DNA of 61,024 nucleotides, counting the filler, from Dugesia japonica (lineage: Eukaryota), in assembly GCA_001938525.1 (NCBI GenBank). It is 6 parts of 6 records of this genome, joined end to end, with 100 filler letters (N's around TTAATTAATTAA, not from the genome) between each part and the next. Parts side by side here need not be neighbours in the genome. Positions count along the whole stretch, not along the records: positions 40,829 to 52,572 come from MQRL01644379.1; 5 more parts are not named here. One strand, given 5' to 3'. The position numbers and the translations under genes were made by a program. Positions within the stretch are counted from its first letter, which is position 1, and every line of letters begins with the position of its first letter. The notes beneath the pieces were generated by a model, which worked only from the letters and a program-made list of their open reading frames with translations, ran no database searches and had not been told where the DNA came from. Below, piece by piece: positions 13,827 to 44,929 of this stretch.

Positions 13827-13905
13827 TATTTATGAAGATGCTTTTTTATATACATGTATAAATAATACTAGTTTAATTGAAACGTTTAAACAAGCAATAG
13901 TTATA
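13827..13905. promoter_or_regulatory. Putative bidirectional promoter between the TBP-like and ATPase genes
   Basis: 79-bp spacer with TATATAAAAAAG on - and TGTATAAATA on +. AATTGAnACGTTTAAACAAG is also conserved upstream of the second ATPase (40697-40717). Confidence 0.45.
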
Positions 13906-14506: not shown

Positions 14507-14531
14507 AAGTAATTTCTTATTTTATTTAAAA

Positions 14532-14803: not shown

Positions 14804-14845
14804 ACAAATAACATGTGCATATATATATATATGAAAATAAAAATT

Positions 14846-15206
14846 ATGAAATTTCAACAAAGTCTTCCGTTTTTTAATGCGTTGCTTAAGATTTCCAAAG
14901 AGCTGAGAGTGAAAATTTTGCAGTCATTCCCATCTTTTCTAATTAATGATCTACTAGAGATTATTGTAAATGTGGTTCGAGGTATTGTAAGTTTAAGCCA
15001 AGCTAGAAAGCAAGCATTAGAGAAGCATAAAAAGACATTATTATCACTTGTTCATACCAAAAATAAGAGATTAATGAGAAAGGTTTTTCATAAAAAAAGA
15101 AGGCTTTATAGCCGAATTACTGTCAATTGTATTAGCAGCATTGGGATTAGCAAATTTTACATACGAAATGGGTAACTTGGAATCATTATCACAAATTTAT
15201 CTTTAA
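14846..15206 (+). pseudogene. Conserved small Polinton virion protein with C-terminal (G)GF amphipathic helix
   Basis: LLEIIVNVVRG...LEKHKKTLLSL, then frameshifted KEGFIAELLSIVLAALG, like the QxGGF-ending Polinton core proteins. Confidence 0.6.
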
Positions 15207-15229
15207 TTTATATCAAAATTGTTGTAACG

Positions 15230-16217
15230 AACAAAATCGAAGGTATATAGACAGATCCAAAAAATCCAGCAGGGTTTTAAAGATTAGAAAAATTATGGAA
15301 AGCAACAAAAAATTCAAAAAGCGAGACGAAAAATTGGCTATTAAGTCAGCTGGCGTACAGTCTAAACAAACCAATGTTGAAAAGATTTCCAACTAGAGCG
15401 TACAAAACATTTTGTATAAATGATTTATGGCAAATGAATTTGATACAAATGATTCCATATTCAAAGATTAATAAAAGTTACAAGTACATTTTAACATGTG
15501 TTGATATATTAAGCAGATTTGCGAGAGCTATTCCTATCAAATTAAAATCTGCCATTGAAATGAAGTCTGCAATCAAATCAATGTTGAAGGATGAACAGCC
15601 AAATATTTTACAAACTCATTTAGGAAAAGAATTCTACAATTCAAAAGTCAGAAATATTATTTCACATTTCAATATCAATCATTATTCTGTCTTTTCACAA
15701 TACAAAGCAGCATATGTTGAGAGATTTAATCGGACATTGAGAGATAGCTTGAAGAAATACTTTGTGCACACTGGTAGTAAAACATGGATACATGTGATAC
15801 CAAAAAATAATTGATAGTTATAATCATTCAAATCACAATAGATTAAATGGTGCGAGACCTGTTGATGTATCATCTGATAATTCAATGAAATCATAGCTGT
15901 TGAGACAACAACCAAAAGAACTTAAAAAACTAAAATATAAAATTGGTGATCATGTTAGAATATCAAAGATATCAGCATCACCATTCATCAAGAAATTTAA
16001 TAGTAATTGGAGTGATGAAGTGTTTGAAATAAAAAAAATCGATACTAATCAAAATCCAATAATGTATGTAATTAAAGATCATGAAGACAATACCATAGTA
16101 GTAAAAATTATAAAAACAAAGGGAGTTGGAAAAGTTAAAGAATTATATGTAAAGTGGCGCGGATATGAAAAACCTTCTTGGATACTAGCAACTCGATTAG
16201 TCAATTTAAATGAATAA
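15230..16217 (+). pseudogene. Polinton retroviral-like (rve) integrase with C-terminal chromodomain-like region
   Basis: YRDPKNPAGF, DLWQMNL, YILTCVDILSRFA, LQTHLGKEF, KAAYVERFNRTL, YKIGDHVRISK, NWSDEVF, LYVKWRGY. Confidence 0.9.
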
Positions 16218-17205
16218 TTTCTATACAATTTTACCAAGCAATAGTTGTCCACTTATTCATCCAGATAATAAAGCTAGTAATTTCAATGTCGAGTTTCAAG
16301 ATCCTATTAATTTGATTGGACAATAGCAAGTAGCCATGTTGGATTTCACATTTGTATATTCCAAATTTCCATTTTATAGTAAATCAAAGATTAAATATGG
16401 TACAAGTCGAGATGTATCAGAAAAATTGCCAATTACAGTATACAAAAATGAAAATCGTATAACTATCACTGCAAATAGTATTCTTAAAGTAAATGGTCTT
16501 ACCAATTTGAAGATTAATTATATACATGATTCATATTTCATAACGTTTGATACAATTGAAAATGCCAAAAGATTTGGATTTGAAAATCAGAGAAACTGGA
16601 TCAAATATAAACATAATCTCAAACCTCAATCGCTTAAAAACAATCAATTGATAAAACCAATTGTGATTAAAGTAACATATTCTGTAATAGTTAAGAGAAG
16701 AAATACAATTCAAAGATGATAGAATTACTTTATAACAAATTTCTCACAAGTATTTGACTCTTTGGTTTTAAACAAAAACGAGTTATTTATTTTCAAGGTG
16801 CAAGATAATGTTAAATGTATTCGATTTGACAAAATCCTGACAAAAACATTCGGAATAGAAAGACAAGAATATCAAATAATAAATCCAAGAATTACAGAGA
16901 TTAATGGTGTGAGAATTCGAAAAAGTATCAACTATCATCAGCAAATGTTTATCTACAGTAACATTGTTGAACCTATAATTGTCAGGGATGTTAAAGTTTC
17001 TTTGTTGAAATTCGTATCGTTGGAGAAATATAACGATGATGAAATTGTTCAGATTATAGTCAAGAATCCAATGTATTTGCCAATTTTCACTTGATGTATA
17101 AACAATATAGAAATCAATATACGAGATAATTGTGGAAAATTAATCAACTTTGCTCAAGACTCAAAAAAACATTTAACTACTCATTTTCTAAAAATCAATG
17201 TCTAA
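16210..17205 (+). pseudogene. Polinton minor capsid protein (penton)
   Basis: MNNFYTILPSNSCPLIHPDNKASNFNVEFQDPINLIGQ*QVAM at the N-terminus. MFIYSNIVEP...KNPMYLP...INNIEINIRD at the C-terminus. Confidence 0.8.
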
Positions 17206-17585
17206 TCTAGATATCCTTAGCATTATATAGTACAAGTCAAGCTGGTGGAAAACTACCACATTTTGTAGGAAAGCAAAATGAATTTGGTTGGTTACAAACT
17301 ATTGGTAGACTTGCACTTCCTATTTTTAGACGTATTGGTGCAATTGGAATGAAAACAGCATAAGATGTAATATCGAATAATGCAAAAATCTTACCAACAT
17401 TAAACGCAAATGCAATGTCTGAATTCAACAATTTTATAACTTCTCCAGAAGTAACAAAAATAATGCCAAAGGACAATACTAAAAATTATTCAAAACTCAA
17501 TGGTGCTGGAATAAAAAGTAGAATTTGAAGTTTAACAAGTATAAACAACCGAATGAAAGAATATAGAACTATATTTGAAAAATGA
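17198..17585 (+). pseudogene. Polinton core protein with QxGG motif and amphipathic helix
   Basis: SQAGGKLPHFVGKQNEFGWLQTIGRLALPIFRRIGAIGMKTA, in the typical position just upstream of the major capsid gene. Confidence 0.65.
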
Positions 17586-18762
17586 TTTGTGGAAAAACTG
17601 AATTGTGTATTTTTGATCGTCTCCTCAAGCTGTTATTGAATATGGGTAATTTAAAACGTGTTTCTAATGAATTCAATATCTGAATCAAGAAATGATGTAG
17701 AGTTTTTTATAAATGGATCGCAAACAGAATATTTGGATTTAAATGATACTTTATTGTATATCCAAGTAAAAGTAGTTGATAAAAATGGAAAGGATTTGGA
17801 CGAAAAATCAAACGTCATTCCTAGCAATTACATATTTCATACTATGTTCAGAGATACTTGGATTTAATAATATTAAAATTGAAGGTGGAAATGAAACTCA
17901 TATTCAAAAAGCATTGATTGAAAGAAATTTGAATGATAATGGAGATAGTAAGAATATTTGTCTTTCTACAATTGGATATGGAGATAAAGATTATAGAAAA
18001 TTTTCCATTAAATCATCAAAACCATTATCTCTCTGTAGTTCTTTGCAACTTGATTTCATGGATCAACCAAAATATCTAATTCCTACCATTAATGTTTAAA
18101 TTAGAATGAAAAGAGCACCTTCAAAAATGTGTTTAGAATCAATAAATGATGAACCCAAATATGTATTGTTGGTTGCAAAATTGATGGTTAAACGTGTTAG
18201 AGTTGAATCATTGGTATTCTCAGGTCACCAAATTGGATTACAAACTCAAAATGCAGTTTATCCAATAAAAACCAAGGAAATTGTAGCATATGCAATTAGT
18301 AAAGATAGCACATCATTTTATAAAGAACAAATCTTTGGCGATCGTCGATTACCAACTTTATTCTAGTTTCATTTTAAAGTGGAGAACAGTATAATGGTAG
18401 TTATAAAAGCTCTAGTTCCGGATTCAATCATTTCAATGTTAAATCAATAACTCTATCAAAAAGCAGTGATTATCGAAAAATATATTCCCAAGACTTTACA
18501 AATGATAGTTATAGAACAACATATATGCAATCGTTAGTTAGAAAAAAGGGATATCTAAACAAGAATATGAATTATGAAATAACACTTGATGAATTCAAAA
18601 CCAAGTATCCATTCTTTACATTTGTAGTTGCTCTAGATTTTGAAATTAATCAAAGTCAATTGAATCAACAAAGAAATTTAAGATTGGATATCAAGTTTAA
18701 AAGTGCATTGATTGCACCCTCATATGTAGTAATTTATGGGGTATTTGAAAATGAAACTAAAA
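17582..18762 (+). pseudogene. Polinton double-jelly-roll major capsid protein (PY)
   Basis: KTELCIFD, VEFFINGSQTEYLDLNDTLLYIQVKV, LQLDFMDQPKYLIP, AKLMVKRVRV, AVYPI, LRLDIKF...VVIYGVFEN. Confidence 0.88.
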
Positions 18763-19615
18763 TGGGACAACATTGATGAAGAAGAATATGATGAAGCAAA
18801 ACAAGTATGAACACAATATAGTTGCACTAATCTCTTACAGTATATGCTAATATACATAAAACTAGACATATACCTGCTTGCCAATGTTTTTGAAAAATCT
18901 AGAGCACAAGTCAAAGATCAGGGTAGGTTTGAAATAGCAAACCTTATATCAATACCAGCTTTAAGTTGGGCAACAGTGATAAAAACATGTCCTGTCAAGA
19001 TTGAATTGTTACAAGATCCGGAAATGTACTTCTTTTTCCAAGCTGGAATAAGAGGAGAAATGACCTTTGTGAATAAACATATGGTACGTGCAGATGAAAG
19101 CACAAGTCTGCTTTATATTGACATTAACAGTCTGTATGGTTGAGCTTTGAGTGAACCGTTACCATATTGTAATTTTGAATGGATAATTGATGAAGATCAG
19201 CCGAAGACTATGATAGAAATATTGTCATATTTGGATATGGAGAAAAACGAATGTGGATTTGTTTTTGAGGTAGACCTATCAATTTCACTTGAAAAACATA
19301 ACAAATTAGACTAACTGCCACTTGCTCCAATTAATCAATGCCCACCAGGAAGTAAAGTTAAGAAATAACTTTTGACACATGAAGCAAAACAGAATTATGC
19401 TATACATTATCGGCTGCTTTAATTGTTAATGAAACTGGGTGCAAAAGTACATAAAGTTCATCGGGCGGTAGTGTTTTTAAGCGGCTCTGTTTTTAAGTCA
19501 TATATCGACTTTAATTCAGAAAAACGAGCTCAATCTACTAACGTCTTTGAGAAAGACTTTTTTATATTAAAAATGAAAAAATTTGGAAAACCTGTTGAAA
19601 ACTTATTAAAACGTA
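18763..19615 (+). pseudogene. Protein-primed family B DNA polymerase fragment (N-terminus deleted)
   Basis: LDIYLLANVFE, AGIRGE, LLYIDINSLYG*A, GFVFEVDL, LPLAP, KSYIDFNSEKR...FEKDFF..FGK..EN. Confidence 0.9.
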
Positions 19616-21571: not shown

Positions 21572-24500
21572 TTTCAACATTTTTGCCGCATCAGTCCATC
21601 GATTTTTCTCTCCTCCAAGTCCTCCGATTAATTGTTCGGCTCTGTCTAATTTCTTGCTACAAAGTTCAATGTTGTCTTCCAAATCTTTTTTACGTTGTTG
21701 AGTTTCATCGAGTTGATCAGTTAAGTCTTGAAGTTTGGCCTCAACTTCATCGAGTTGGGCTTTTTTCTCTGCTAATTGTTTCAACTAATTAATTTTAAAT
21801 AAAATAATTAAAAGAAAAAATTTTTACTGTTATTTCTAATTCTTTTTCTGCAGCTACTAATTTTATTTTTTTAGGAGCAACAATTTTCGAAGCAAAATCA
21901 TATTTATCCATTGCAAGAATCCATTTACAAAGACCTTCACACGCTGTGCTAGCGTTACGTACAATTTTCGGATCGAAATCTGGATCTGGAATGTATTTTT
22001 CTCTTAATTTTTTCATTGCTTGTGGATTCACCATATCAACATTGAAGGTCTTTAATTTTTCAAGGAATTTAAAATCACCAAGTAATTTAACAGAAGAAGT
22101 CCAATAATCTTCAATCATTTTCCCGGTTGCTGTATCTGGTTTTCTTTCTGGTTTTTCTCCGAGCATGATGCAAATAGCTTCCATTACTAATTTTATTAAA
22201 CCTGGTGGGTTTTTCATTGACCTTACTAGAGTGATATCCTGTAAAATAATTGAATAGAAATTTAATCAACAACATTTAATAATAATAATAAAAATAAACA
22301 ATCATTGAAAAGAAAAGTAATACAAAATATTACGAAGAAATTCTCAAATTTGTANGTATTAGAAATGTTTCAAGATGTAAAGGAGAAAGATGTATCATGG
22401 ACTAAAACACATATGGACGAGATCAGCACAATTTAAATAATAAATTTATTAACTAATTCAATAAAGTTTTATAAATAAAATTATTTTTAGAATAATATTT
22501 GGCCTAAACAATTGATAAAATTTCTTTTAAAATTTTTAATAAAAATAATTAGCGAGGTCATGATTTTGTTTGTAAAGTTCATAACTGATAAAGATTTTAT
22601 CTGGGAATAAATTTATTAATAATATATTTTAATTAATTTTGGTGATTTCGCGAATCTTTATATATTCTTAGTATCTTTCAAAAAATCCAATTATAATATC
22701 ATTAGTATTTTAAATTGATCAGTGTGGATTAATCCGTCAAAATATTTTGCATTCAATGAATTAAATTTATCATCATTTTTCCAGTTATAATTTCTAATGT
22801 GTTTTACAAATTTGTGACTTCATTAGATGCGTAGGAAAGAAATATTTATTTCAGTTACTGAAAGTCAGTATGACTATTACAGGCTTGCATAATGTAGTTA
22901 AATGGTTGTGAGAAGCACTGATAAGAGTTTAAATAATATATTTTCATAGAAAAGCATAAATTTAAATTCCATAAATATTTACATTGCAGTCGACTTTTAT
23001 TTCATGGATTCTAAACCACACGAACTTAACAAGCACAATACTACTTTGATCAAAATATACCCGGTCAACCCAATTTAAAATTCACGCAAATGCTATAGAT
23101 GTAATTCTTATTTTTAATAGTCGCTACATATTTGTTTTACTACATCACCAAATTTCAGCTGAACAGATCACGTCAAAACGAAATTAAACGTCCCGATACC
23201 TTGAAAATGCTACAAAAGTGCTATGGCAACAATGCTTTATCAAAATCAACAACTAATGAATGTCTAATAAAATATTTTAGTTGTTTAAGTATAAATAGAA
23301 AATAAAAAAAGTTAAAATTAAAAGAAATCTACTAACGTTTTGTTTTAAAGTATCCAGAGACGCTATTGCTTCTCTTAATATTGGCATAGCTTCTGCTAAA
23401 TCTGCTTCACAATCATCTTTTATTTCTTGACTAGCTGCAGCTTTAACATTAGCTTCTTCTTGTTCCGCTGCCATTATTTCACGCTTTGCCTCTACTTCAA
23501 CCGTATCTTGTTCTACTTTTATCAATAGTTTATCAGTTTGAGCCGATGTGACAATCAGTTCCGGTTGAAGAGCTTTTAGCTCAATTTGCATTTTTCCTAC
23601 TTCTTTAGCAGCAAATTCCAATTTATCTAAACCAGTTAAATATCGATTTCTTAGAGTAATCAATTCGTTTCTTTTGAAATTCAATAACTTTTTAAATGTT
23701 TTAATCAATTCCAAATACGAGGTAGGAGTTACGTAATTATATCGGCGAAGTGTATTTAAAAATCTAAAGAATATTTAAAATACAAGCACTATTTAATAAA
23801 AGAAAATTCTACTTACTCTTCAGATAATTTTATTACGCTTTCATGATAGAATTTACACATTATTACAATAGATTCTCTTGTACTTTCATCCATTTCAATG
23901 TCTTCCAAGAATTTGTTAGCAACCATTTCCAAAGCATCTTCCGGCCACGCCTGTGATTTAAAATAACAATTGGAAATTTAAAAATACTAATTACTTGAAA
24001 CCAATCAATCGTACAACAGTTAATAAGAGATGGAAACATTCTTAACCTATTTCTGAATGCATCTCCAATTGGACTCATCGCTAGAACAATATGGAGATTT
24101 TGTTTTACTCTTTCAATGAAGTAGTTATACATGGCCATTGGTGTTGAATCGATTTTTCTTCCCTGTAATTAAAATTCAAATAATCTAACGAATCAGGGCA
24201 CAAATTAGAAGAGAAGCATATATGATTATAACTGTCCATATAAAGAAGTTAACTTTATTATTGGCATTGGCTTTATTATTTTTATGTTGAATGTATTTTT
24301 ATTAACGTTAATAATAAAAAATTTATTTTACTATTTAATATTGTGTTATTTTATGAAAGAAATTGGTGGCTTTTGAAATCTTTGTATTTTTCATAATGTC
24401 ATATTTACCTTTATTTATTAACTTTATACATTAAAAATTGATTGCTAAAAATAAAATATTCATTAAACATAAAGCACGTATACCAAAAAAATTTTCAATA

Positions 24501-27903: not shown

Positions 27904-30559
27904 CTTAATTTAAAGAAAATCAATAATTGTTTTTGAAATAAAAAAAAATTTCCATTAAGATTTGTTGTAAATAAATTTTTATTCATTAATTCAATACTTG
28001 CATATACAACCTTTTATAGTTTAATTAAACATTAATTAAGTGCAGGTGTGTTGTTACAATCCGAGAATTACAGAAAATTTTCTAAAACATAGAATTTCTA
28101 AAAGTTCCGAAAATTAGAAAAAATCTCAAACAACAAAGGATATGATATAGCAATTATGAGTAAGCATCATCTTATTCAATATTTTATTAAAAGAATACAA
28201 ATTAGTAGTGACGATGAAAAATTATTATTTAATAATAATGTGCAATATTTCTTATCAATAATTGTTTAAAATAATTATTTTCTGTAAATTTTCATATTAA
28301 TTTAAATCAAGTTTTAAATCTTAATTTTCAATTTGTGAAAAATAATTTCCAATTAGAGCATGAAGTTTTAATTTGTTTAAATAAACAAATAATGATGGTT
28401 ATAGTTTTTCTTTGAATAAAGATTGTAATGAATTCGAGTTCTGATGTTGATAATCCGACGAGTTTTCCAAACTCATCTAACAGTGTTTAAATAGTTTATT
28501 TTTATGTAAATAATTTATATTGTGTACTTTTTTACAAAAAAAAATTAATGTATTCAGTAGCATAATCAGAACCTTCAGTACCAGGAAAAGTTTATTAATT
28601 TTGATTTTCATGTTTTGGCCAAAATATGTGACTGGACTGATTATTCAATGGTCCAACTTAGCGGCTTTCACTTCAATTTATTATAAACCAGAACCGTTGC
28701 CAAAATGCTTTATAATCTNTTTTTATATTTAAAACTAATAATTCATATTTTCCATTGTTAAGACTTTATCATATTTATTAACTTTTCGGTTTTTGCCGTA
28801 ATCGGCATAATTTTAAATTTCCTACACGTCAGTATTTTGCTTCACAATATGAATTTTCAAAAATTGGATTCCAAAAATTCCGACTCAATTGTAACAAATG
28901 CCTTAAATTTTTCTTACATTCAAGGGGCCACAAAATATTTATATAAAGAAAATTTCATGGATTCATCAATTTTTTACCATTCTCAATTCTATTTTTTTCT
29001 TTTCTTACAAATTATTTGAAGCANNNNNNNNNNNNNNNNNNNNNNNNNNNNNNNNNNNNNNNNNNNNTTAATTAATTAANNNNNNNNNNNNNNNNNNNNN
29101 NNNNNNNNNNNNNNNNNNNNNNNAAAAATCACCAATCTTTATCCTTGATTAAATAAATTGAAAAAGCTATTACTTTAAATTAGTTGGTCCCTGAGAAAAT
29201 TTGTAAGTATGAAATGGATAACATTAAATTTGAAATAAATTAATTGTATGTATGAAACTAATCATGAAAAATTTAATTCATCATTAATTAATAGTCATCA
29301 AGTTAATCGTAAAGGAAACAATAAAATTATAATTAAATTCNNNNNNNNNNNNNNNNNNNNNNNNNNNNNNNNNNNNNNNNNNNNNNNNNNNNNNNNNNNN
29401 NNNNNNNNNNNNNNNNNNNNNNNNNNNNNNNNNNNNNNNNNNNNNNNNNNNNNNNNNNNNNNNNNNNNNNNNNNNNNNNNNNNNNNNNNNNNNNNNNNNN
29501 NNNNNNNNNNNNNNNNNNNNNNNNNNNNNNNNNNTAACTCCTTTATGTGATAATTTATTCACAAATATTGGTTTTCTCACTGTTCACAGGTCTTCAATGA
29601 TCAGTGCTCTGATCACTAGTCCTCAGACATCAAAACTCTGCAAGCTGTGCACTGGTCATAAGAGATCTGACCACTGTACACTAGTTTTCAGTAATCAATA
29701 CTCTGCTCAATGGGCACTGATCTTGAGTTGTCGGTGGTTTTCTCGTTCTTCACAGGTCTTTACTCTTTACTAATTTTCTCACTCTTTGCTAGTCTCGNTT
29801 TTTATTGATCTTAAATGTACTGTTTGGTTAATTTTAAAACTTCATAAATGTTAGATTAATTATTTTACTTTGATTGAATAAAATTTCTATTTCAGGATTT
29901 AATTAATTAATTTGAAATGTTAATAATAGGTTTGTGAATAATTGGTTAGAATTTTAATGATTGAATAAATTTAAATGTTACAAGCAGATATTCAATTGGT
30001 AAGTTAATTAATAAGAAGAAGTTATATATATTAAGTTGAAAATATGTGAACAATTAACCAGTTATTGGTTGTAAGGTGTATATTCAGTGTGAATTATAGG
30101 CATAACTATAAGAATAAGCGATGAATAGATTAAGCCATTAACTGAATAATCAATAGTTTAATGATTACAACGAGTATTGTGTATGGTAACATTTAATTAT
30201 AGCGAGTTTTATGTATTAAGACTTGATAAAAGCGAATATTGTGTATGTTAATACTTACTGATAGTGAGTATTGCGTATGTTAATAAAATATAAAATAGAA
30301 TATCCTCACCAAAAGGATATCAGAAACCCAAAATGAAAATGGAACGGAAACGACCACCAAAGTGGAATCAGCCACCCACCAACCAACAGACTCAACTACC
30401 GTCGCACAGAGGTAAGCAATATAACTCAAACCAAGGTCGTCGAAAAACCACCAGTACACCCATCATGGTAAGAGCCTATTGAATAAGGTTTTAGGAGAGG
30501 GAATCAAGATGGAAGAAGAAAAAAACAACATAATACAAGTCAAATCCCTTCAGATGTAG

Positions 30560-33500
30560 TATGCGCAAGTCTTGGTGGCGGACCATTATTAACGATTATG
30601 GTTAAAATCAACGGTAGACCTACAACGGCCTTGTTAAATACAGGAGCAAGAATTTCGTTATTATCAATAGAGAAAATCGCTATAACGGAATATAAAAACA
30701 TACTGCCCACCAACACTACGGCAGATGTGGCGAACTGTAGTAGTCTTAAAATTTCTGGGGAGCTACCTTGCAAAGTAGAATATTTGGACAATAAAATTAA
30801 ACAAAATATGATAGTAGTCGAGATAGCAGGACAGTGTATTTTGGGCACAGACATTCTTCCAACTCTGATGAAAAATACAAAATATATTGTTGAAAAAATA
30901 AAATATTAAACTTCTCAAAATTATGGTTGCAATCACTGGAGGGATATACTCATGTTAAAGATCACGAGGTATTCACAACAGAAGAAATATTGGTGCCAAG
31001 CCGATGCCACGTATATTGTGTAGTAAGCACCAAAAGTGCATACGAAGGAGATGGCTATTTTGAACCTTATGATGGATTGGCACAACAATATGAGTTGCTC
31101 ACAGCAGGGGGAATAACCACGGTCAACAAAAGTGGAGAGGTACCTGTTAGTTTAATCAACTTCACCGAAAAGAATATCATAATCAAACCGAATTCCAAAA
31201 TGGGTACGCTAACCCTCATCAAACAAGAAACCGACGAGATAGAAGAAATAATCGTCGAACTAGTAATAGATAGGACATTTTAAGTGGAAACCGAAACACT
31301 ATCGGATGACCAAAACCAAGCAATTCTACAGTTGTTAGAAGAATTTCGGGATATTTTCCATGGACTGATGAGGAACTAGGTATGTTTACTGCTACAATGC
31401 ACACAACTCCGTTAACAGACGAAAACCAAAGTAAACAGAAACCATATGCAATGACTGTGAAAAAAAAGGAATTTGCAAACAAGAAAAAAGCTAAGCTGGT
31501 GAAAATTGGGTTGATAGAAGCTAGCTGCTCACCATGGCAGTCACCAGTAGTATTAGTTGATAAGAAAGACGGGACACAACGATTTTGCATTTATTATAGA
31601 AGGCTGAAGGCACAAACTAAACAGGACACGTATCCGTTGCCAGACATCAATGAACTACTACAATTATTGTGTGATACCAAAATATTCACTACACTGGACA
31701 TACGAAGCGGTTATTGGCAAATCCAGATTAAACCAGCAGATAAAGAGAAAACAGCTTTTTCCACAGGCAAGGATTTATACCAATTCATACGCATACCGTT
31801 CAGACTCACTGATGCACCTGCCTCATAACAACGAATGATGAATTATGTAACCTATGGCATATCTCAATGTATGACATATATTGAAGATTTACTGATATAC
31901 TCGCCAACGTTTGAAGGACATCTCAATGATTTGCATAGTGTGTTTATTCGATTACGTAAATGGAATTTGAAAGTGAAACCCACTAAATGTGAATGAGCCA
32001 AGAATAAAGTAAAGTATTTTTGTCACTTAATCTCCGACAAAGGGAAGGAACCGGATCCAAGAAATACCGAGAAAATCAGGAATCTCGCACCTCCAAACTG
32101 TGTGCTCAAAATACAAGAGTTTTTAGGCCTCGCAAATTATTATCGGAAATTTATCAAAGATTTCGCTAAAATTGCTAAACCAATTCAGGAACTGGTCAAA
32201 CAGGATACCGCATTCATATAGGGGCCGGAGCAGCAACAATCATTTGAGACAGTGAGGAACAAATTATTAACTCCACCAATTCTGGTGCATTCGGATATAA
32301 AAAAACCATTAGCCACTGACACTAGTGGTTACGCGATGGGTGCTGTGTTAAACCAATTGGATCAACAAGGTAGAGAAAGAGTGATAGCATATTTTAGTCA
32401 GAAATTTCAAGGGTCAGAGTTAAATTACAGCACTACAGAACGAGAAATAATGGCTATTGTTAAGGTCACTAAGCATTTCCGATCACTCATACATGATCAC
32501 GAGGTGTTAATCTATACGGATCATCTGCCAATCACATTTATGGATCAAAAACCGTTACGATGGAATAGAATGGCGAAATGGCAACTGGCAATGCAAGATT
32601 ATTGCCCATTGTTAAAATTTAAAACCGGTAAAGCAAACGCGAATGCAGATTGCATTTCAAGAATAGGCGGACCGGAAAATGCGGAAACTACATCGGACGA
32701 CACGGAAACTTTCACATTACGCGATTTACTAGAGAAAAAAGTGGGAATGGTATATTTTATATTAGCCGAAGATCAAAATTTCAAGGGATTGAAACAAGCA
32801 CAGTCAGAGGAGGAGGAAATACAGATCATTGCGAAATATATGGAAAATTACAACCTAAAGAAACAGGAATGCGAACCTAAAATGAAGGAGCATTTACAGA
32901 AGAATGGTGGGCGTTATGCTTTCACTAAAGGCTGGTTAACAGCTCAGAATTGGGAAAATACCGTGTTAGTTATTCCAAAATCCAGGCGACATAAATTGCT
33001 GGAACAATATCATAATGGAGTATTGGAGAGACACATGTTACATAAAAAGACTGAGTCAAAATTACTGCAGAAATACTACTGGCCACACATGACAGAATCA
33101 GTAAAAAAATGGATCACCAAATGTCAAATATGTGCTGCCAGGAGAGGAACGGGCAAGCGAGTAAAGGCATTACTAAAACCCATTGCAGTACCAGCAACAC
33201 CTATGTAAATAATAGCCATGGATGTAGTTGGACCATTGCCACCGACACTATGCAGAAATATTTACATACTTACTATCATCCATAAACATACGGACGATTT
33301 AATGAAACATTGATCAATATGCTGTCTAGTTATGCACAAAAGGAACAGAATAATTGTGATAAACATATTCAACTATGTCTTTTTGCATATCGAATGAGTG
33401 GGCATCCAGCTACTAAATACACCCTATTTGAACTTATGTATGGCAGAGAATGCAACATGTCAATCGATTTGGAATTCAAACTTCTTATAACTCAATACAA

Positions 33501-34017
33501 AGATGAAACGGATTTCGCAGCAAATTTCAAAGAAACTATGCAGAAAATCTTGAAACAAGCCAAAGAAAATGTAGGCTTCTACCAAGAAAGTTGCAAAGAT
33601 TTGCATGATAAAACCGCAGTTCAACATGCATATAAGAAGGGCGACATGGTATTAATCAATTTACGGTATATTTACGTCAGTACTACGTCAAAATTAAAGA
33701 AGCCTTGGCAAGGGTCATATGAAGTAATCGAGGTAACTAAAATTAACCTCAAAGTTCGGAAAAAAGGAAATCTCTTAGAGAAACCTAAAATCTACAACGT
33801 CAACTTATGTAAAAAGGTCGCAACAACGGATGAAATTACTCCAGCCACAACTGCTGCACCAACTACGTCAGAACATAGAAGACCAGATAGACCACGTAAG
33901 TCAAAAGATAAGGAAGTAAACACCTCGCACAGTTACCCATTACGATCACAACAAGCTATGATGATACTCGGAAAATTATCAACACCAGTATTCGTACTAG
34001 GTCAGTTAAGTCAGTGA
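30560..34017 (+). pseudogene. Gypsy pol: protease, RT, RNase H, integrase (core largely deleted near 33275)
   Basis: ALLNTGA (PR); SPWQSPVVLVDKKDGTQRFCIYYRRL, LDIRSGYWQI, YIED (RT); TDTSGYAMGAVL, YSTTERE, YTDHLP (RH); H..H..YYWPHM..CQIC (IN zinc finger); KPWQGSY. Confidence 0.92.
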
Positions 34018-37000
34018 GTTAAAGAATTGGACACTACAACGCTGTATCCTATAATTCCAAGAGAAACACAGACAACAGTAGCAGAAAATAATTGTGCCAA
34101 CTTTTCTTGGGTGACATGCCTAATCTCACTAACATTAATCGAAGCGAGTTGTCTTACCTGTATAAGGAAGATGCAAACAGTTCTGAAATCGACATTATGC
34201 AGCGTCTCCGCATGAAGACTGTGGTTGTTACACCAAGATGAATTTAGTAGAAAACGATGTAAGAAAATACATGATGAACTGTCAATTCAAGCACTATTAG
34301 AGCAAGACGTAATTAACTCCTTATGTGAACCCTGCGTTGGAATTTATTGGAAATTAAAAGTGGTTATACAACTAGAAGATGAGGAAATGACAGAAACAGA
34401 ATTGCAGAAGAAAACTAGATTGCTGAAAAATGGTGTTTTAAAATATGCGGATAAACGAAGAAAGCCTAGGAAAGTGAAAGATAGTCCGATTTTATATCAG
34501 GATTTTCATGCCAAAACCGGCAAGGAAAACGCCGAAACCCTAAATACTGCACTATCCACCAAGGAACTAAAACCTTCGAATATTATAGGTATACCTAAAA
34601 TAGCAGAGACACCAAATACTAATCATCTGTCTCAAGCTCAAATGACATTATCTATGATTAATAATAGATCAATCATTGCATTAAAAATAAAACATTAAAA
34701 CTGTATCTTTTGGTTCAGATAATCAAATGCGGCGACCACTTGTAATCAAGGCTATGAACGCCACTATGATCTTTACCATCACATGCCATGGAAGCCGGAA
34801 AACAAGATCCAAAAATGGTTGTATTCATATTACACGCATAACATGTCCCTTCTCAGCATTACAACTGAAGGAGAATTGTCTGCAATGTATTAAGCGAACA
34901 CAAATTATATTTAAAAAAATGCACTAAAGGCCATTTACGAACAACGAGCATGGCTAGTTAGACCAGAAAATTGGTTTAGGAAAGACTGTGAGGGATCACG
35001 AATTAAAATACCAATTCAAGCACCCATTCGTCAATCTGTCATAAAAAATTATGTATGCCATGCACGGATATTTACAGCGATAAATTATTAGCATCCATTC
35101 ATGTATTTCACCGTGCACTGGTGCAATTGAACTGGATAAGAGTTTATGAACCTTTGAAGATTCAATTACCATGGGAAATGGTAGGATCACCCAGTCAAAG
35201 AAAATACAAGCTAAAAAATATGGCGAAATTGGACGTAAAATCAGATAAACTAACTCCCAGAGAACCGTAATTGAACAATATCGAGAACACCCAGGAAGGA
35301 ATACAAAAGCGAGTGAAAATAATAGAAAAGTCATTCAATGAACAATGAAATAAAATGGATGGAAAAGAGAAACAACTAGCCAACATAGCCTTAGGAGAAA
35401 TGGAAAGAATGAATATGACGGTAGTATATAATGAGACAGAACAAGCGGAGGAAGAAACACAAGAAAACAAGAGTATAATTACAATGGAAGTAATAATCAA
35501 AGTGGCTTTGTTGTTATGGGCAGTAATCAACACAAGTTGCGATTTTGGCATATTAATTTGGTTGACCCTGAAACTCATCAAAAATATGGGGAAAGGCTAC
35601 CAAACATCAATTATAATTTATGAAGTAGTGGGAATAATCTTACTATGATTAGCATTACCAGCATTGGCAACTCATCAAATACAGAATTTCAACCAGAATA
35701 AAATCCCTAACGGACAAATTATACTTATAATTTTAATTATGATAACGAAAGGAGGTAAAAGTCAAGACTGTTGGACCAACTTGGCAATATGAACAGAACA
35801 TAGGATATTTGTCGAGGATAGCAAAACAAGAATTAGGACAATGAGTACAGATGGACGAAACCGTAAGGTAAAAGTTCACGAGGGATACGGTCATGAATCA
35901 ATACTCCTAAAGCCCACAATCATGGGAACAAAAGAAATCAGGATATTATTAACCTGGCATAAGTAGACGGCAAGGTTATGGTTCAGAGTAGATATACCAG
36001 TAGAGGGTCAGGAAATGCACAAAACATTGGTGGATGCATTCAGCATAATAATTTCAAGAGAAGTGCCGCAAAGGCTACAGCGAATACGAACAAGAAATAC
36101 AATTCGACATACAAATTGCGCGCAACTTCTTAATCTACTATATAGTGGATAAACAACAACAAAGAGGATGGACTTGGAAAAGGAAAGGGAGATGAGAGCT
36201 TGAAAATTTATCAAAAGAATGAATACATATTTCATATACAATTTTGGAAAAATGTATTTAAGGAAACAACGGGAGAAGATAGAAAACAGAGATTTATGGA
36301 ACAAAAAAGTATAGCTATTAACCGAGAAAAGGATTCAACACAATAACTGAATATTCTTTTGACAAATGGGGATCCCATTGGCAGGAAGAACCAGGACCAG
36401 TACAGATCAGAAAAATGAATAACACTTATCACTTGAGAATTAACGAGAAAATGGAACAATTGACAGCACAGAAATATTACTCGCTCATTCAATGGGCATG
36501 GTGTTACAACGAGGAGGTAGCGAGATTTAAAGAAAATGCGTTGCAAGAGCAAGGAGTAAATATGGGTAGTTTCGGCCCAGAAATGTAGGAATGAAATTCA
36601 CTACAGCCATAAATCGTGATATAATAATAAAATCAAACACCACCAGACCAAAGGTTAAAGAGGTTACGATTACAGAAAAAACCACCACAACAACAGCGGA
36701 AACTCAAAAACCAACTACGTTAGTCAACGAGGAAAGAGAAACAAAAAGAGCAAACTTCTTAAACAATTTAATGATAAACTTGCGGAATTACAAGCCAAAG
36801 GAGGACCATGTGATGGGATGAATGGGCCTACCACAGTAAAGGAATCAATTACTACACTCTAACCGACAAAAAATGGGATAGATTATATAGTAACAATAGG
36901 GAGTGTGTCAATAGTGGTATTTGTATTAATAACGATATATTTGCAATTCTGTAAACGAGCGAAACCCAAACGAAAGAAACATATCCGAAGTAGAAGAAAA

Positions 37001-37117
37001 CGACATCTACCGATAGCCCCACCAATCTACGAAGGATTACCACTTCGGGTGATATCGAACAAATTATCCACATATGTGCCTAGACCCTATCAGGCACCGG
37101 GGGTAATGACTTGCTGA
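33958..37117 (+). pseudogene. Post-integrase env-like membrane/glycoprotein region, decayed
   Basis: Cys-rich segments (34100-35060), hydrophobic helices near 35490-35750, Thr-rich stalk at 36591, and TM VSIVVFVLITIYLQFC followed by a basic tail with PPIY. Confidence 0.5.
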
Positions 37118-37230
37118 ACAAACATTAAATCTGTGTAAATAGTGTAAATTATGATGAAAACAATTACATAATGACTATATAAACATGTAATTATAATGAG
37201 GTATTAATTAAATTTTCACATTCAGACAAA

Positions 37231-37800
37231 ATGAGTGTTATCGAAAATGAAAATGAATATTCAAATATGAGTACAAATGAAGTGATGGATTCGCAAAGTG
37301 ACACAGAAAGCTCAAGTACAACAAGCCATATATGTAGTAGTCATGCAAGAAGCCTTACCCGAATAAGCAATAATTATAATACCCTTTCACAAGTGACGAT
37401 AAATGAAATATGGAAAAATCATAATGAAGAAATGAAAGAACTATGGGATAGGGCTCAAATCCAAACTCATTAGACACAACAACGATTGGAAGTGTTGGAG
37501 CATAGCCAAAATCAATTACTCAAAACTATAATACACACGAAACCTCAAGATTTGAATGAGCTGGAGTTTAAAAACAAAGTCCTACAGTTGCAAAACGAGA
37601 ATCTATATGCAGAAACCCTTATGTGTCGGCAACAAATAGTAGAAAATCGACGAATGTTGGAAACCACTACAGAAAAACAGAATTATGCAATGGAATTATT
37701 AGCCAGACAACATGACCTAATTTCTAATAAGACAAGAGAACTAAAGGAGTAGTAGCCTCACAAAAATGGAAAATCGAGACACTCAACATGGAGTGCTCGC
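37231..37800 (+). pseudogene. Accessory coiled-coil ORF of the Gypsy element
   Basis: Ser-rich N-terminus, then heptad-rich LEFKNKVLQLQNENLYAE.... One in-frame stop. TTCAG acceptor just upstream. Confidence 0.55.
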
Positions 37801-38217
37801 ACTCAAGTCAGCTTTGTCTAAAAATTTAAGAGAGAGTGGAAGTTAAAAAAAATATATATAATAATATATAAAATATATACATAAAATAATAGATACCTAG
37901 TAACTATATACGTATTCGAGTAAATATAGAAACTCACGAAAAATAGTAAATAAACTGAAAATTAAAATAATTGTAAATAAATAGTATTGTATAACCAGAA
38001 ACAATCATGCATATAATTTTAGATAATAGAATTCGATCTGGAACTATCAATAAATGAGGCCAGACTAATAATGAATGATCTGGATATTGAATTATATTGT
38101 ATGAGCCAAGGTCGAGAATAAGTCAAGCAAAGTCCAATAGTGCAAAACGTAATGCACTACTGAAATAGTTTTTGGTCACCAGAAAATTTTATACGACGGA
38201 AAGTGTAGTACAGTGTA

Positions 38218-38703
38218 ATGAAAGTTTTCGACTATAAATATCGAGATGAAGGTATACAAACAAAATCCTTATTCGAGTTACCCAAGTACCTGCATGGACT
38301 CATTGAGGATATAGCCAGATCTGGATTTTATTTCGCCGGTACCTCAGAACGGCCGGATAAAGTAAAATGTATATATTGCCAAGGAAACCTGTACAAATGG
38401 AGCATAAACGATAAACCTAACAGAGATCACAAGAAATGGTTTCCTACATGTCCTTTTCTGTTAAATTTAGATGTAAATAATAAAACAAAACCAAGCAAAG
38501 GCAGAAAATCAGAAATTGAAAAATTAACTTCAGAACCGAAAAAAATATATTTCAAAATCATAAAAAATCGAGCAGAAGTACCATTACCCGATGATATAGA
38601 ATGGAATATCGAAGCTAGAGAAGAAACCTTTCATAAGGCACTGGACTTAATAGAAAAGGCAATGGAAGGATTAAATAAAACGGGGAGTGATTTGTTGGGG
38701 TGA
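38218..38703 (+). CDS. BIR-domain (inhibitor-of-apoptosis-like) protein carried by the retrotransposon
   Basis: IARSGFYFAG...DKVKCIYCQGNLYKWSINDKPNRDHKKWFPTCPFL, the canonical BIR CX2C-X16-H-X6-C pattern. Confidence 0.9.
   Translation: MKVFDYKYRDEGIQTKSLFELPKYLHGLIEDIARSGFYFAGTSERPDKVKCIYCQGNLYKWSINDKPNRDHKKWFPTCPFLLNLDVNNKTKPSKGRKSEIEKLTSEPKKIYFKIIKNRAEVPLPDDIEWNIEAREETFHKALDLIEKAMEGLNKTGSDLLG
38673..38692 (+). promoter_or_regulatory. Polypurine tract
   Basis: AAATAAAACGGGGAGTGATT immediately before the LTR start TGTTGGGG. Confidence 0.65.
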
Positions 38704-39892
38704 AACACGCAGTCTGAAAAGAAAACCAAACGAAGGGCCAGAGAGGAAGAATTAATAAAGAAAAAGGATTAAAAGGAAATTCAATCAGGAACAAAGCACT
38801 TACGATGAAAAAGATAGAATACATACATCAATAAAAGAAATCACAACGAATTAATTATGAATAACTAGTATGGCTAAATTAGAATAAAATTAATTAATAA
38901 ATAAAAGATTAAAATACCGAGAAGAGGGATAAAAAGATCTTGGATGAATAAATCTGGACCACATCGACTATGGTAATCAAAAGAAATTATGAAAATAATA
39001 ATTAAAATCAAGAAAAGCTACGAGTGAAAAATCATTAATTACCAGAAAAAATTAATTAATTTTGAAATAAAATAAAGCAAAATTAGTTAAAAATTCGTTT
39101 TTTACGAATAGCTTTGCTCAGAAGAATCGCAGCAACGCGTGAAAAAAAAATCTGAGAAGATCTCTAAATGAAGTATTAGGAGTTGAATATGAGAAAATCT
39201 TACCACCATCGAGAAGGTTGCCACAGAAATCTGAAAATAAAAATAAAACAAAGAAATGACAATCACATGTCACTCCAAAAATAGACACCAATAGAATGTC
39301 AAAAGACTCTACAAAAATTCTAAAATTTGGCATCAATACTAATAAGAATCAAGAATCCGAGAATAAAAATAACTGGCCAATACAGAACGAGTCGGGGTGT
39401 AACCAAAACGGGTTTATAAACCCCCCAAACTTTAGAAGAAAAACAACTTAAAAAACGAAATTTTCTAACTTTACTTAAGTTATTTGAATTGCTAAAGTTT
39501 TACGGAGGAACACTTACTGCTATTTGTATAATAAATCAAAGTAACACAAATTGCAAACTTACTTGTTAATTATCTTTGAAATTTAAAGGAACAAAGGTTT
39601 ATCGGTAAAATTCAGGACACGGCGAGAAATAATCAAAACTTAAATAGACAAAAATCCGTCGCAGATATTCTAAATAATAAGTAGTTAGTAATTTTGTCTG
39701 GATGAATATTCTGTTTTAAAATGAATTTAATAATAAATATTAAGTGTAACAGAAAATTTGTTTTGATTTTTGTAACTAATTTGAATAGTGCTTTAACCGA
39801 ATAGACAAAAGCAACATGCTCAAGAACTATCACTGATTCCTGCCGTTCAAACAATCGGCATACGAAGTTACAGTCGACCAAGAGATGCCGTG
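38693..39892 (+). repeat. 3' LTR (partial) of the giant Gypsy element
   Basis: Starts TGTTGGGGTGAAACAC, as at 41086. 39040-39295 matches 780-1035 and 41390-41653. Confidence 0.8.
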
Positions 39893-40728
39893 AGTAGATA
39901 GATAGTGGCAGTCCGCACCACGCACACATTCAGTAGTCCCCCCCGCCATGACGTAATGTAATGAAATTTAATCCTAATGTATTTAGTTGGGAATTTAAAA
40001 ACTACATCATTAGGTAATAGTACTTAATTTGGTGTTAAATGCCAGAAAATAATCAACTTACTTTTTATTGTTTATAGACTGTAACATTATTTGGATTGAA
40101 AATATCAGTTCGAACTCTAATATCATCAGGACATTGCTGTGTAAAATCAAGGAAAATATATCCATGAGGCATTACTGTTGCATCCTTAAATGAATCCAAT
40201 AGAAATTGCCGATTATTTGGATAAGCTTGTCTTGCTAGAAAATCAACAATAGTTTGGTCTCTTGGGTTTTTAAATATAACCAAATATTGAACATTTAAAT
40301 TACGTGTTCTATGATAACCACCTTGATGGAATAGATTCTGTGTAATGAATATTACAGTAACACCACAATGTCTTGATATTTTTATGAATAAATTATTAAA
40401 GTCTTTTTCTTTATTGGCTTCTTGATACAGATCATCAACAACAATAATATCACCTGTTTTCAATCTCTTGCTCAAGTTGTCATCAAATCCAATAATTATG
40501 GTNNNNNNNNNNNNNNNNNNNNNNNNNNNAGTCATTCCATGCTCCTCATCTGCACCTTTATGCCAATATATTGTATTGAATTTCGATTTGAATAAGTTTG
40601 ATTTGAATAATTTACACACAAACAAGATTTTTCCACTACCACTTTGTCCAACAGTTTGATATACAGCATCATTTCTTAGTTCCATAATAATTTATACTTG
40701 TTTAAACGTATCAATTGAATTAATATTG
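39893..40728 (-). mobile_element. Second Polinton fragment: AGTAGATAGATAG terminus plus packaging ATPase (40065-40685)
   Basis: ATPase GQSGSGKI/IVVDDL/FITQNLF/FKNPRD is clearly homologous to the 13906 copy. The terminus is shared with 1-49 and 40902. Confidence 0.88.
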
Positions 40729-40828
40729 NNNNNNNNNNNNNNNNNNNNNNNNNNNNNNNNNNNNNNNNNNNNTTAATTAATTAANNNNNNNNNNNNNNNN
40801 NNNNNNNNNNNNNNNNNNNNNNNNNNNN

Positions 40829-40902
40829 TATGTAATAATCCGATTACGAGGGGGGGTTCTACTGAATGTGTGCGTGGTGCCATCCGCTACTATCTATCTA
40901 CT
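40829..40902 (-). mobile_element. Polinton TIR end at contig start
   Basis: ...CTACTGAATGTGTGCGTGGTGCCATCCGCTACTATCTATCTACT. Confidence 0.7.
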
Positions 40903-41085
40903 CACAAAGACTCCCCTCTTTGATTAAATTCTATAATAAAACAAATATCTATGGACTTCACTCTTTGGTTATTTTATAACAAAATAAACAAGGACTTCCT
41001 TATTTGAAACAATATACTGTAACTATGTAAATAATACATAATTTCTTTAAAGTTTATATTATATTCTATTATATTCTTTTATTAT

Positions 41086-43556
41086 TGTTGGGGTGAAACA
41101 CCCGATTAAGAAGAAAGCAAGGCCAAAGGCCCAAATCATAAGCGGAAGGCTACTAGCAAAGAAAACTAATGAAGAACAGTATTCATATTATAATAATAAA
41201 CTACGAATAATCAATCATGGACAGAATATGTTAAAATATCTGATAAAAGGCCAAAAGAAAAAGAAAGTGAGTATGAAGACCTTGGTGAAATAAGTTAGCT
41301 CACACCAAGGCCAATAATTAAAGGGAATTATCAAAATAATAATAAACGGCAGAAGAAATTAATGTCAGTAAATAATTATTTATTGCAGAAAAATTAATTA
41401 ATTTAAAAGAAAAATAAATTGAAATTGATCGAAAACTGGATTTTGGTGATTACCTCTACTCTGCCAAATCACAGCGACCTCTGGTAAACAAATCTGAGAA
41501 GAATTGGTGACAAAACATTAAGAATTGGGTAATAGAAAATCTTATCACAATCCAGAAGGTTTCCACAGGGATTTGAAGATTGGGCCAATAAGAGATCCGA
41601 AAAAAAAATCAAAGGAATGACAATCACATATCATTTCAAAAATAGACGCCAATGGTGTAAACCGAGCACGAGACCAAAGTAAACTTGAAAAGAAAATTAT
41701 TTGTAATTAATTACTATATTTAAAAGGGAGAACCAAATCAAAATCAATTCATTGTTCTCAATTCGGAATTGCCAATTTGTCAGTGTTCAACCCGTTGACA
41801 GAATCATAGCCAATCTATTAAATGGAATATCTTTGGGAAACGCTATTCGATCGTCTTACCAATAGGGTAATTTTTAAACGGTATTGGAATCCTCATGATC
41901 GTAATGCATGGTTCCTTACCGATTAATCCAATATGCCTTCCGTCGACGCAGAAAATGAAATAGAATGGGCTGCATCCAAACGCTAGGCCTTTTACGAATG
42001 GAGAGGTCCCGACCAAACCCACGAGGTTTTACATCGCGTCACCGTCACTGATCCGAAAACCAGGCATATTACAAGCGTGTGGCGTGACGGGCCTGTATTT
42101 ATCTCTATATTGGCCACATACGTGCCACCCCACACGATATTGAGTGGAGAGATAAGCAATACTTTTTGGGACTTGCGGAATAGTGCAAGTAATGGGTTGG
42201 CGGAAAATAATGCTCCTTATCTACTCGAAGAAAATCCATTGTTTCAAATATACTCTTGTTTTATTAATGATAATATATTCTGTGTAAAAAATTAACTTAG
42301 TTACGTTCTTTTTAAATCTGTTGTTGACGGGTATTATTAAAAATAATCAAATAAAAGTTGAAATTTTTGAGGATTTTAATGTTTTAGTTTGAAGGTATTT
42401 TAATAGTCATAATATATTTATTCCAGTGCACTCATCGTTAAATAGACCACCAGCCCCTACCAAGAAAGTAAGGGAATCCAGTGAAGACATTGAGATGTCT
42501 TGGGAGCTGCACCGATTAACCAAACGGCGATTTGAGGCAGAGATGACCACTGCTAATGCCAAAGTGAAGCGGTACCAGGCCAAATGTGTCCACATTCGCA
42601 AGGAAATTGAGGCTTCGCACGCTCAAGAGAGAGTTTGGAAGTTAGAGGTAGAATCCTTCAAAGAAATGATCCGGTCCAACCATGACTGAGAAAATAAACT
42701 GGTCAATGACATCTTACTCCTCAAAGAAAAAATGCCTTTGCAGCCTCTCATGATTGATAAAGGTACCCAAAAGACTTGTACTTAATTATGGTTGTAATAT
42801 TCCATCTTCATAAATAAATATCGTTTATGTATCAAGAGTTGTCTCTGTTTACTAATCTTTTTTTATTTTTGTTATAATGATAAATATTGGATATTAATCC
42901 TTAGGCCTAATAAAATGATGATAATTTCTCCATAATATTCCCATTGTTTCAGTGTCCCGCATCAGGCTTCCAAGTAGGTTAAGTCGTTGCCATCGAATCA
43001 TCCAAAGATTACTTGTGGAAAGAAATCTCAAAAGTCAAACCGAGAGGGCTCTTTTAAAACTTTTGGCTCAAAGGAATAAGCTGATTAAGAAATTAGACAT
43101 AATAGTCAAAATGCAGAACGACATAGCCGAGCAGGCAAAACAACTCCTGCAACACAAGGTCGAATTTTTGAAACGGTATATTGCCAATCTGTCCCGCTAA
43201 TAAGGCCATGAATCGTGTCTCAACTGGGACGATCCAGATGACTTCGATTTCATACCCGAAAAGCTTACCCAGTGGTTAGACCCGGGAGCTCTAGATGAAA
43301 TGTAGTATAGAAACAATTCAATTTATTAGCAATCTGTGTTTATTTTTTGATACTTTAAAATAATAGGGAAATAACTACGGACCCGAACCACAGGTGTACG
43401 AGTGTGAACCTCGCATGAAGTTGAATGGTCAACCGTTCTTCACTGAATATCTAATTTGCGGACATTATATCTAAATTCTTGACGGGGTACACCTGAGGGT
43501 CGTTTTTTTCCCGGCCAGTTTTTCTCTCCATCATCAGCTCAGATGGAACCCCAACA
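41086..43556 (+). mobile_element. Complete solo LTR (2471 bp, spliced form) with 4-bp TSD TTAT
   Basis: TTAT|TGTTGGGG...CCCCAACA|TTAT, with perfect 8-bp terminal inverted repeats. Contains ORFs A, B and C. Confidence 0.88.
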
Positions 43557-44929
43557 TTATTATTACCATAATTTCCATAATTTCCATAATTTCAATTATG
43601 ATAATATGAAATTAATACTATAAATATTTTTGAAATTAAAATGGTGAGTTTATTTTTTGAATGATAAATTTTTTTAAGTTAAATTTTAATAAGATTTTTT
43701 TAATTAGATTTTTTTATAACTTAATTTATTATTAATTGAAATTTAGGTAAATATGTTAAAAGGTTCATTTATTATATGGTCAATGATATTTAAAGGTTTC
43801 TTTAATATAGTCAAAAATGAGACAAAAATGTCTAATATGTGCTAAATAATATAAAATATGCCATGTATTAAATAAGTAACAGTTGCGTTATAATTTCATA
43901 CCATCAAATTATTGATGATGATGACTGATTTTTTTAAAGCAATTGTAGCAGAGTTCAATTTATGACCGGATGTGAACGTCCAAAAGCATTGCTATCAGAG
44001 ATGCACATACCGTAATCGAGCTCAGTCTAGTTAAAACTACCCAAACTGACGGACCTTGATGGATTGGTTCGTCGGTGTGTACATGTTGGAGAAAGTAATG
44101 TAATGGTAGGAAGAAAAACAAGACTGTCACTAAATCAATGCATAAAAATAATTAATAATTATTAATAATTTATGGATTTAAACTTATAGAAAAATTAAAT
44201 TAATGTCTTATTTAATAATTTTCAGCTCATAAAACCTTAGAAATAAAACTGAAACTCATTTTTGGAACACAAACGCTGCATTCATGCTACACACAAATAT
44301 CATGGTTACCTTTGGCAACCTAAAGACATTTTCGATGGCCAACTCAAATATACCATCAAAACCATAAAAATTATCACCCGAAACTTTTTCTGTCGTGACA
44401 CACACACCATCACCTACAAAATACCAAACATTTACACTATCACATATACCCCGTATTTGTTTTTTCTACCAATCACAATTCATCCAAATCCAACAAAAAA
44501 TCACAATACTAGACCTTTTAAACTGAAATCAAATAACACGTCACTGTAACCAACAGAAACACTTTTATAAAAAGTTATCTATAGCATTATATACAGATTT
44601 GCAAACCCTACTCAAAAATATCATCAAAATTTCACAATTCACCAAAATGAAGAATGTAGATATTCGCTGTTATCTCTCAGAAAATCGCCAAGCACAATGA
44701 ATGTCTTTCCAGATTTGAAAAAGGAAACCAAACTGGCTAATATGTTAATAAATTGTGTTAAAATCCCGTATACGATATTTATATCAGGAGCAAAAGGCTC
44801 TATATATTTGGATAGATGAAGTCATCAATAGAAGTCATCATTAGAAGTCATCAATATGAACAAAAGAAGGCACTATTATTGTACTAGAAATGCTAAACAT
44901 CGTAAAACCCCTTGTGACATTTTCGGCAA

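Follow-up and report, generated by a model that had tools for sequence, protein, structure and literature searches.

The DNA analysed here, referred to as the window, is a stretch of 61,024 nucleotides from Dugesia japonica (assembly GCA_001938525.1), composed of six parts joined end to end with filler letters between them. On its plus strand, positions 41086-43556 hold a repeat of 2,471 bp with the TG...CA inverted termini of an LTR, beginning at 41086 with TGTTGGGG and ending, with 43556 as the last base, in CCCCAACA. The sequence TTAT flanks it on the left (41082-41085) and on the right (43557-43560) as a putative target-site duplication, a 4-bp match that would arise by chance in 2-4% of cases in such AT-rich flanks and is therefore weak by itself. 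Neither a PPT ahead of the repeat nor a PBS-like TGG after it was found when the flanks were read. In run X2, eight single-contig joints, none of them base-exact at the site (0/8), jump from 41035-41082 to 43562-43586 and thereby skip the whole repeat, indicating that related flank sequences without the LTR exist. The TG...CA ends, together with a related LTR in the window that is attached to a gypsy pol, indicate that the repeat is a Ty3/gypsy-family solo LTR; from its sequence it is read as an internally deleted and dead member of its family, left by a large Ty3/gypsy retrotransposon. A first-pass annotation had described it as a complete solo LTR with a TTAT duplication, and this holds for the termini and the flanking TTAT but not for the interior, from which two segments present in a second family member (1039-1291 and 1457-2979 in that copy) are missing. 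Origin as a LINE-made processed retrocopy was rejected, since both LTR termini are present and a poly(A) tail is lacking. The putative U3-like part lies upstream (41086-41655, plus strand) and is ~65% identical to the LTR at 38693. Within it, at 41573-41608, RNA reads from two runs match a short piece at <95% identity and continue into unlike sequence, suggesting that more distant, transcribed LTR families exist. In the right flank (43660-43692), RNA reads of all three runs match a short piece with three shared differences, which suggests that this flank is part of a repeat with a transcribed relative.

The comparison took in three family members within the window: the solo LTR, a 5'-truncated LTR of the same family on the plus strand at 660-4590 (copy 1), and the LTR that begins at 38693. 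Copy 1 is 87% identical to the solo LTR, with which it aligns in four blocks (87.0-88.4% identity); its 5' end has been cut off near 660, and, judged by this copy, the LTR of the family is at least 3.9 kb long. One of the two segments missing from the solo, copy-1 1039-1291, corresponds to a 253-nt deletion with its junction at 41655-41656 (plus strand) and with ends that are not GT-AG; it took with it a CCAAT box, the TATA box, and the predicted start site. A microhomology model for this deletion was rejected, as the aligned ends have none in common. Copy 1, for its part, has no equivalent of solo positions 42941-43066 (126 nt), which include the splice acceptor of frame C, one of three reading frames discussed below.

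The third family member (38693-39890, plus strand) is the start of a 3' LTR that has the same first 16 bases as the solo LTR and is cut by a Polinton-like insertion. It is about 65-67% identical to the solo family, belongs to a different subfamily, and is attached via a preceding purine tract to a PR-RT-RH-IN pol. The decayed internal region of this related element (30487-38703, plus strand) contains protease, dUTPase, RT, RNase H, integrase, membrane-protein-like, coiled-coil-like, and BIR frames, with the dUTPase located between protease and RT and the BIR as a separate 3' frame; the part of the element upstream of the protease is not in the window. The BIR-domain frame (38209-38703; E 9e-17) has an AG ahead of it and reaches its stop codon within the first bases of the 3' LTR. 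Between it and the membrane-protein-like region lies an acceptor-led, coiled-coil-like frame of ~173 codons with one stop (37231-37750), for which no Pfam family was above the cut-off. The region past the integrase (34018-37117) is frameshifted, and its end is made up of a hydrophobic segment, a basic stretch, and a PPxY-like motif; frames at 34018-37121 gave no Pfam match, including Env and FN3 families. The insertion that interrupts the 3' LTR is a ~1-kb element (39891-40904) that is bounded by inverted ends, contains the remnant of an A32-like ATPase, and is 75% similar to 13864-14523; part of the same inverted end recurs at 1-50. A decayed Polinton-like element with A32 ATPase, rve integrase, and DNA polymerase B remnants occupies 13816-19143. 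On the minus strand, 21795-23774 contains dynein heavy chain exons (stalk and AAA_8 matches); this host gene may contain or adjoin the LTR copies.

The other segment missing from the solo LTR has the form of an intron. In copy 1 it occupies 1457-2979 (1,523 nt, plus strand), begins with GTAAGC and ends with TTTGCAG, a T-rich tract preceding the terminal GCAG, and the last base of the donor exon is A (1456). In the solo, the base preceding this segment is joined directly to the base succeeding it at 41820-41821 (plus strand), that is, the end of the leader exon is joined to the first base past the acceptor of frame A. The junction cannot slide in the alignment, and a 1-nt length difference in its vicinity lies ~10 nt upstream and not on it. 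Of the 2408 possible segments of this length in copy 1, only six have GT at the start and AG at the end, and multiplying the GTRAG frequency by the YAG frequency gives 1.3e-5. The missing 1,523 nt are very probably a true splice fossil, and this is the firmest result of the analysis. As judged from the two copies, the solo LTR was likely reverse-transcribed from an RNA spliced at the 1457 donor and the A acceptor, and the intact LTR ends together with the lack of poly(A) suggest that the copy was made by the element's own replication. AG acceptors had been reported before B and C in the solo and before A in copy 1; all were found, and the exact intron loss explains why the acceptor of A is seen only in copy 1. 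That exact loss, like the splice-built start codons described below, had been missed in the first reading of the DNA.

Two other origins of the 1,523-nt difference were weighed. One is that the solo underwent an ordinary DNA deletion, or copy 1 an insertion, the splice-like ends being due to chance; large deletions do occur in these copies (a second one in the solo, without GT-AG ends, and a 126-nt one in copy 1), and the intron loss is a single event (n=1). The probability of such ends (1e-5 to 2.5e-3), the lack of a target duplication around the segment, and the similarly placed donor-like site and downstream AG of the related LTR make this extremely improbable. Loss of the intron after insertion, through gene conversion with a cDNA of a short spliced LTR transcript, would leave the same exact junction; it requires a second rare event, whereas replication through RNA would give the loss directly, and it is considered very improbable. 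Reverse transcription of a spliced RNA during the element's replication is the preferred origin.

Downstream of the junction the solo LTR carries three frames on the plus strand. Frame A (41822-42295, ~157 codons) starts at its own ATG at 41822, contains stops at 41924 and 41984, and differs in length by 1 nt near 42286. Frame B (42425-42785, ~119 codons) is led by an acceptor AG at 42425-42426 followed by an in-frame TG and is interrupted by a stop at 42687; it is coiled-coil-like. Frame C (42951-43305, ~117 codons) likewise begins with an acceptor AG (42951-42952) and an in-frame TG, has stops at 43198 and 43201, and is helical with an acidic tail. That all three begin at these positions had been proposed at the outset and is confirmed; their recurrence in copy 1, also proposed, is borne out for A and B and only in part for C. 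Stops had also been claimed to fall at different positions in the two copies, and they do: over 346 aligned codons of A, B, and C, internal stops are present in one copy at 9 and in both copies at none. In the five remaining reading frames of this DNA, 69 of 1706 codons carry shared stops (P about 6e-7 for in-frame versus off-frame, with the frames chosen after looking), and 1 of 15 off-frames is likewise free of them. When alignment columns were shuffled, three such open runs were never obtained in 5000 trials and a single run of at least 150 in 56 of 5000. Further, GC content is 0.41-0.45 in the three frames and 0.22-0.23 in the spacers. On the strength of these patterns, A, B, and C are taken to be real reading frames that are broken in the solo.

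Purifying selection on the frames, which the first-pass annotation had looked to as a check, was not found between the solo and copy 1, and for these two copies the check came out against the cassette claim. The dN/dS values are 0.98 for A, 0.67 for B, and 0.73 for C, and the pooled value is 0.82, as compared with 0.79 for the null (P=0.66). Differing sites number 111 of 1040 in coding and 104 of 1077 in non-coding DNA, and the divergence of the two LTRs fits neutral decay after insertion. A neutral dN/dS is also expected from two dead copies of once-functional genes and is therefore no case against function in an active lineage. In the contigs of run X2, depth (which is not a copy number) ranges from 47 to 185 across A, reaches 37,479 and 16,106 in the bins that cover 42606-42789 (the 3' part of B), and is 24,481 and 62,769 at the LTR ends. 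The 3' part of B being as deep as the LTR ends suggests that it is common to very abundant related families; some RNA reads of relatives also fit this part of B.

Searches for relatives of the encoded proteins yielded a single credible case. A profile search with A (stops replaced by X) against 1.84 billion proteins returned 4 matches at E up to 0.001. The best of these, P0007, matches A with E 1.7e-11 and 44% over residues 1-78; the first Met of the two proteins is aligned, the conserved portion comprises the first ~65 residues of A, and 30 of 65 positions are identical to copy 1 with no gaps. P0007 is a singleton on a 512-bp ENA contig. It contains no stops, an observation biased by a library that holds called ORFs only, and a test for conservative substitution gave weak values (P=0.03 versus copy 1 and 0.12 versus the solo). 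The other matches, P0008-P0010 (E 2e-5 to 9e-4), were set aside as chance, being short matches to repeat-rich proteins. Word-indexed homolog searches with B, A, and the RNase H-integrase frame, which covered near lengths only and, for pol, E 1e-20, found nothing. Pattern matches to copy-1 B in viral contigs (11) and metagenome contigs (450) and to P0007 in metagenome contigs (599) included none that could be confirmed. For the six window proteins and P0007, no Pfam family was above the cut-off, B and C giving weak coiled-coil matches only, and the PDB sequence search returned no relative (best E 0.011 for A and 0.59 for P0007). A single-sequence model of P0007 was of low confidence (pLDDT 53), and the best hit of a fold search with it was not meaningful (Z 5.5, rmsd 3.2, 84 aligned); a WW-like reading, made by eye, gained no support. 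For copy-1 B, the best Atlas match scored 0.89 (recognition 1366), with none of 0.9 or more, and Rfam had no match in the window. The initial statement that no family could be recognised for these proteins thus agrees with the Pfam, PDB, Atlas, and fold searches.

The arrangement of signals in copy 1 suggests how such frames could be expressed. A TATA box at 1156-1162 (plus strand) aligns with a TATA-like box at about 39414 in the 67%-identical LTR at 38693, and two CCAAT boxes also align between these LTRs. About 300 nt past the TATA box comes the donor, with A as the last base of its exon; comparable positions in the related LTR are occupied by a donor-like site and, further downstream, an AG. 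Directly past the acceptor there is an in-frame TG for B in both copies and for C in the solo, such that the A of the donor exon and the TG past the acceptor form, in the DNA, an in-frame ATG. This applies to two of four frames, B and C, and not to A, whose own ATG stands one base past its acceptor, or to a fourth frame, Z (2532-2818, plus strand), which comprises 95 open codons inside the copy-1 intron after an AG at 2530-2531, in the phase of B and C, and lacks the TG. Frame Z has a basic stretch, and its Pfam match to Tat (E 0.18) is not significant. Elsewhere in the intron, 1590-2100 is a GC-richer, decayed stretch past an AG near 1640, without a Pfam match in three frames, and possibly represents one or two further gene modules; an AG at about 39805 in the related LTR is placed like the one near 1640. 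With seven AATAAA motifs in the solo and 12 in copy 1, none could be singled out as the poly(A) signal. No joints or spliced reads were seen among 88 RNA reads from three runs (62, 15, and 11), which is weak evidence at a depth corresponding to 25%, 25%, and 6% of the three runs; one of the 88 reads matches at >=99% identity and 87 lie only partly on the stretch.

An LTR with one promoter, one donor, and several alternative acceptors, i.e., a multi-acceptor gene array, is a probable reading of this arrangement. Its combination with the fossil, in which an exact intron loss through reverse-transcribed spliced RNA took place in an LTR that is a small multi-gene unit, is favoured with reasonable confidence. 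Transcription is predicted to begin ~25-30 nt past the TATA box, which would put the genes in R/U5 and not in U3. A short non-coding leader would be spliced to one acceptor per transcript, resulting in one small protein per mRNA. With the AUG of B and C built by the splice, unspliced RNA would not yield these proteins from that start, and RNA that is to be copied at full length would have to evade splicing. Packaging and copying of a molecule with the splice to acceptor A would give an LTR without the upstream modules and the donor, and later LTR-LTR recombination would have left the solo.

Whether the frames were ever genes, and whether a solo LTR could put them to use, are separate questions. 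The splice could be real and the LTR RNA non-coding, with the frames being captured or chance open stretches in GC-richer DNA, comparable to the spliced LTR lncRNAs in maize. The dN/dS equal to its null and the blank record of the searches (no Pfam family above the cut-off, no PDB relative, no Atlas match of 0.9 or more for B, and no homologs of A or B) would fit this, but the 0 of 346 shared stops as opposed to 4% off-frame in the same DNA, the in-frame TG past two acceptors, and a relative of A that is aligned with it from the first Met would not, making it decidedly improbable. As to use by solo copies, the first-pass annotation had seen in the LTR a gene cassette that spreads accessory genes independently of gag-pol. 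The portion of this claim that stands is that the LTR family carries acceptor-led small frames without a known family. In the solo, there is no TATA match, the donor before B and C was lost with the intron, and stops interrupt A, B, and C; the claim of a working cassette fails for this copy, and the spread of working genes by solo LTRs is unsupported. A solo LTR is a product of recombination and, without a PBS, is not copied and does not spread by itself. For solo LTRs of the family at large, the neutral divergence seen here adds to these points, whereas copy 1 has promoter, donor, acceptors, and frames within one LTR, such that a young solo could in principle express them, and spliced transcripts contained in LTRs are described as common in maize in the portion of PMC13192763 available. 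Self-standing, working cassettes that spread accessory genes without gag-pol are on this evidence improbable.

What the proteins of a coding array might do can be approached by analogy. A genomic RNA whose 5' end bears a strong donor together with several acceptors faces the difficulty that Cer1 overcomes by means of CERV, and in the spliced solo the splicing would seem to have prevailed over full-length RNA. The BIR frame that adjoins the related LTR would suggest modulation of the host as a second role. Tentatively, then, the proteins could be trans-acting helpers of the element, such as a Rev- or CERV-like export factor for unspliced RNA and modulators of host defence. A more far-reaching scheme, and a doubtful one, would have one promoter and donor serve at least four acceptors and splice-built start codons couple translation to splicing, with reverse transcription of spliced RNAs deleting modules in exact steps from donor to acceptor, so that the choice of splice site drives gene content, one product being Rev-like and young solos supplying products in trans.

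LTRs are usually regarded as non-coding control DNA. Here, a genomic copy records a splice inside an LTR whose exons look protein-coding. Such a DNA-level record of donor and acceptor use, with the genes predicted to lie in R/U5 and not in U3, can be counted genome-wide without RNA. If true, the accessory-gene system of large invertebrate gypsy elements would be as elaborate as that of complex retroviruses and would include several new small protein families.

In the open-access literature, to the extent of the text available, no published account of an LTR gene array combined with an intron and splice-built starts was found, and genes within LTRs are not described in the accessible portions of PMC8532177 or PMC11410931. 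Likely relatives are the giant gypsy-like planarian elements Burro and GYPSM1, in the case of Burro by domain set, and six errantiviruses of S. mediterranea (PMC13524379); the supplement rows for the latter give no tRNA type or LTR coordinates. In the parts of PMC6431247 available, Burro/GYPSM1 elements have multi-kb LTRs, the order protease-dUTPase-RT, a BIR, and accessory ORFs, and the related element at 30487-38703 resembles them in having protease, dUTPase, RT, RNase H, integrase, and BIR. It differs in that its BIR stands alone as a frame that ends at the 3' LTR, whereas theirs is described within a giant Gag-Env-Pol polyprotein, and those parts mention no LTR genes, introns, or split start codons.

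Individual traits of the proposed array have counterparts in other elements, each considered here on the basis of the available portions of the sources cited. MMTV sag is alike in that the LTR is long through encoding an accessory protein reached via a splice acceptor, but sag is a single ORF in the 3' LTR, expressed from transcripts initiated further upstream (PMC3026287); in the D. japonica family, several frames lie downstream of the LTR's own conserved TATA box, predicted promoter, and donor, an order that points away from the sag type. The env gene of the Drosophila gypsy/springer subclade also has a start codon built by splicing, with a donor that gives AT and a single internal env gene (PMC2585583; bioRxiv 10.1101/2023.08.03.551782), whereas the donor described here would give A only, would serve at least two small frames in the LTR, and is known from DNA alone; in the LTR frames, of about 120 codons, Pfam found no match to an Env family. 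Other gypsy elements also have accessory proteins that are small or spliced and belong to no known family; examples are Cer1 of C. elegans, where CERV exports the unspliced genomic RNA (PMC10309623), and the MDG1 group with sORF1 and sORF2, in which full-length RNAs show no splicing (PMC11952523). CERV and the MDG1 sORFs are encoded outside the LTR, unlike A, B, and C, and the latter are set beside them by description, no search having returned those proteins. Introns inside an LTR are reported for maize LTR retrotransposons in a 2026 preprint, which its authors call the first evidence (PMC13192763); the RNA in maize is described as non-coding, whereas the exons of the family examined here carry frames, and a genomic copy preserves the splice.
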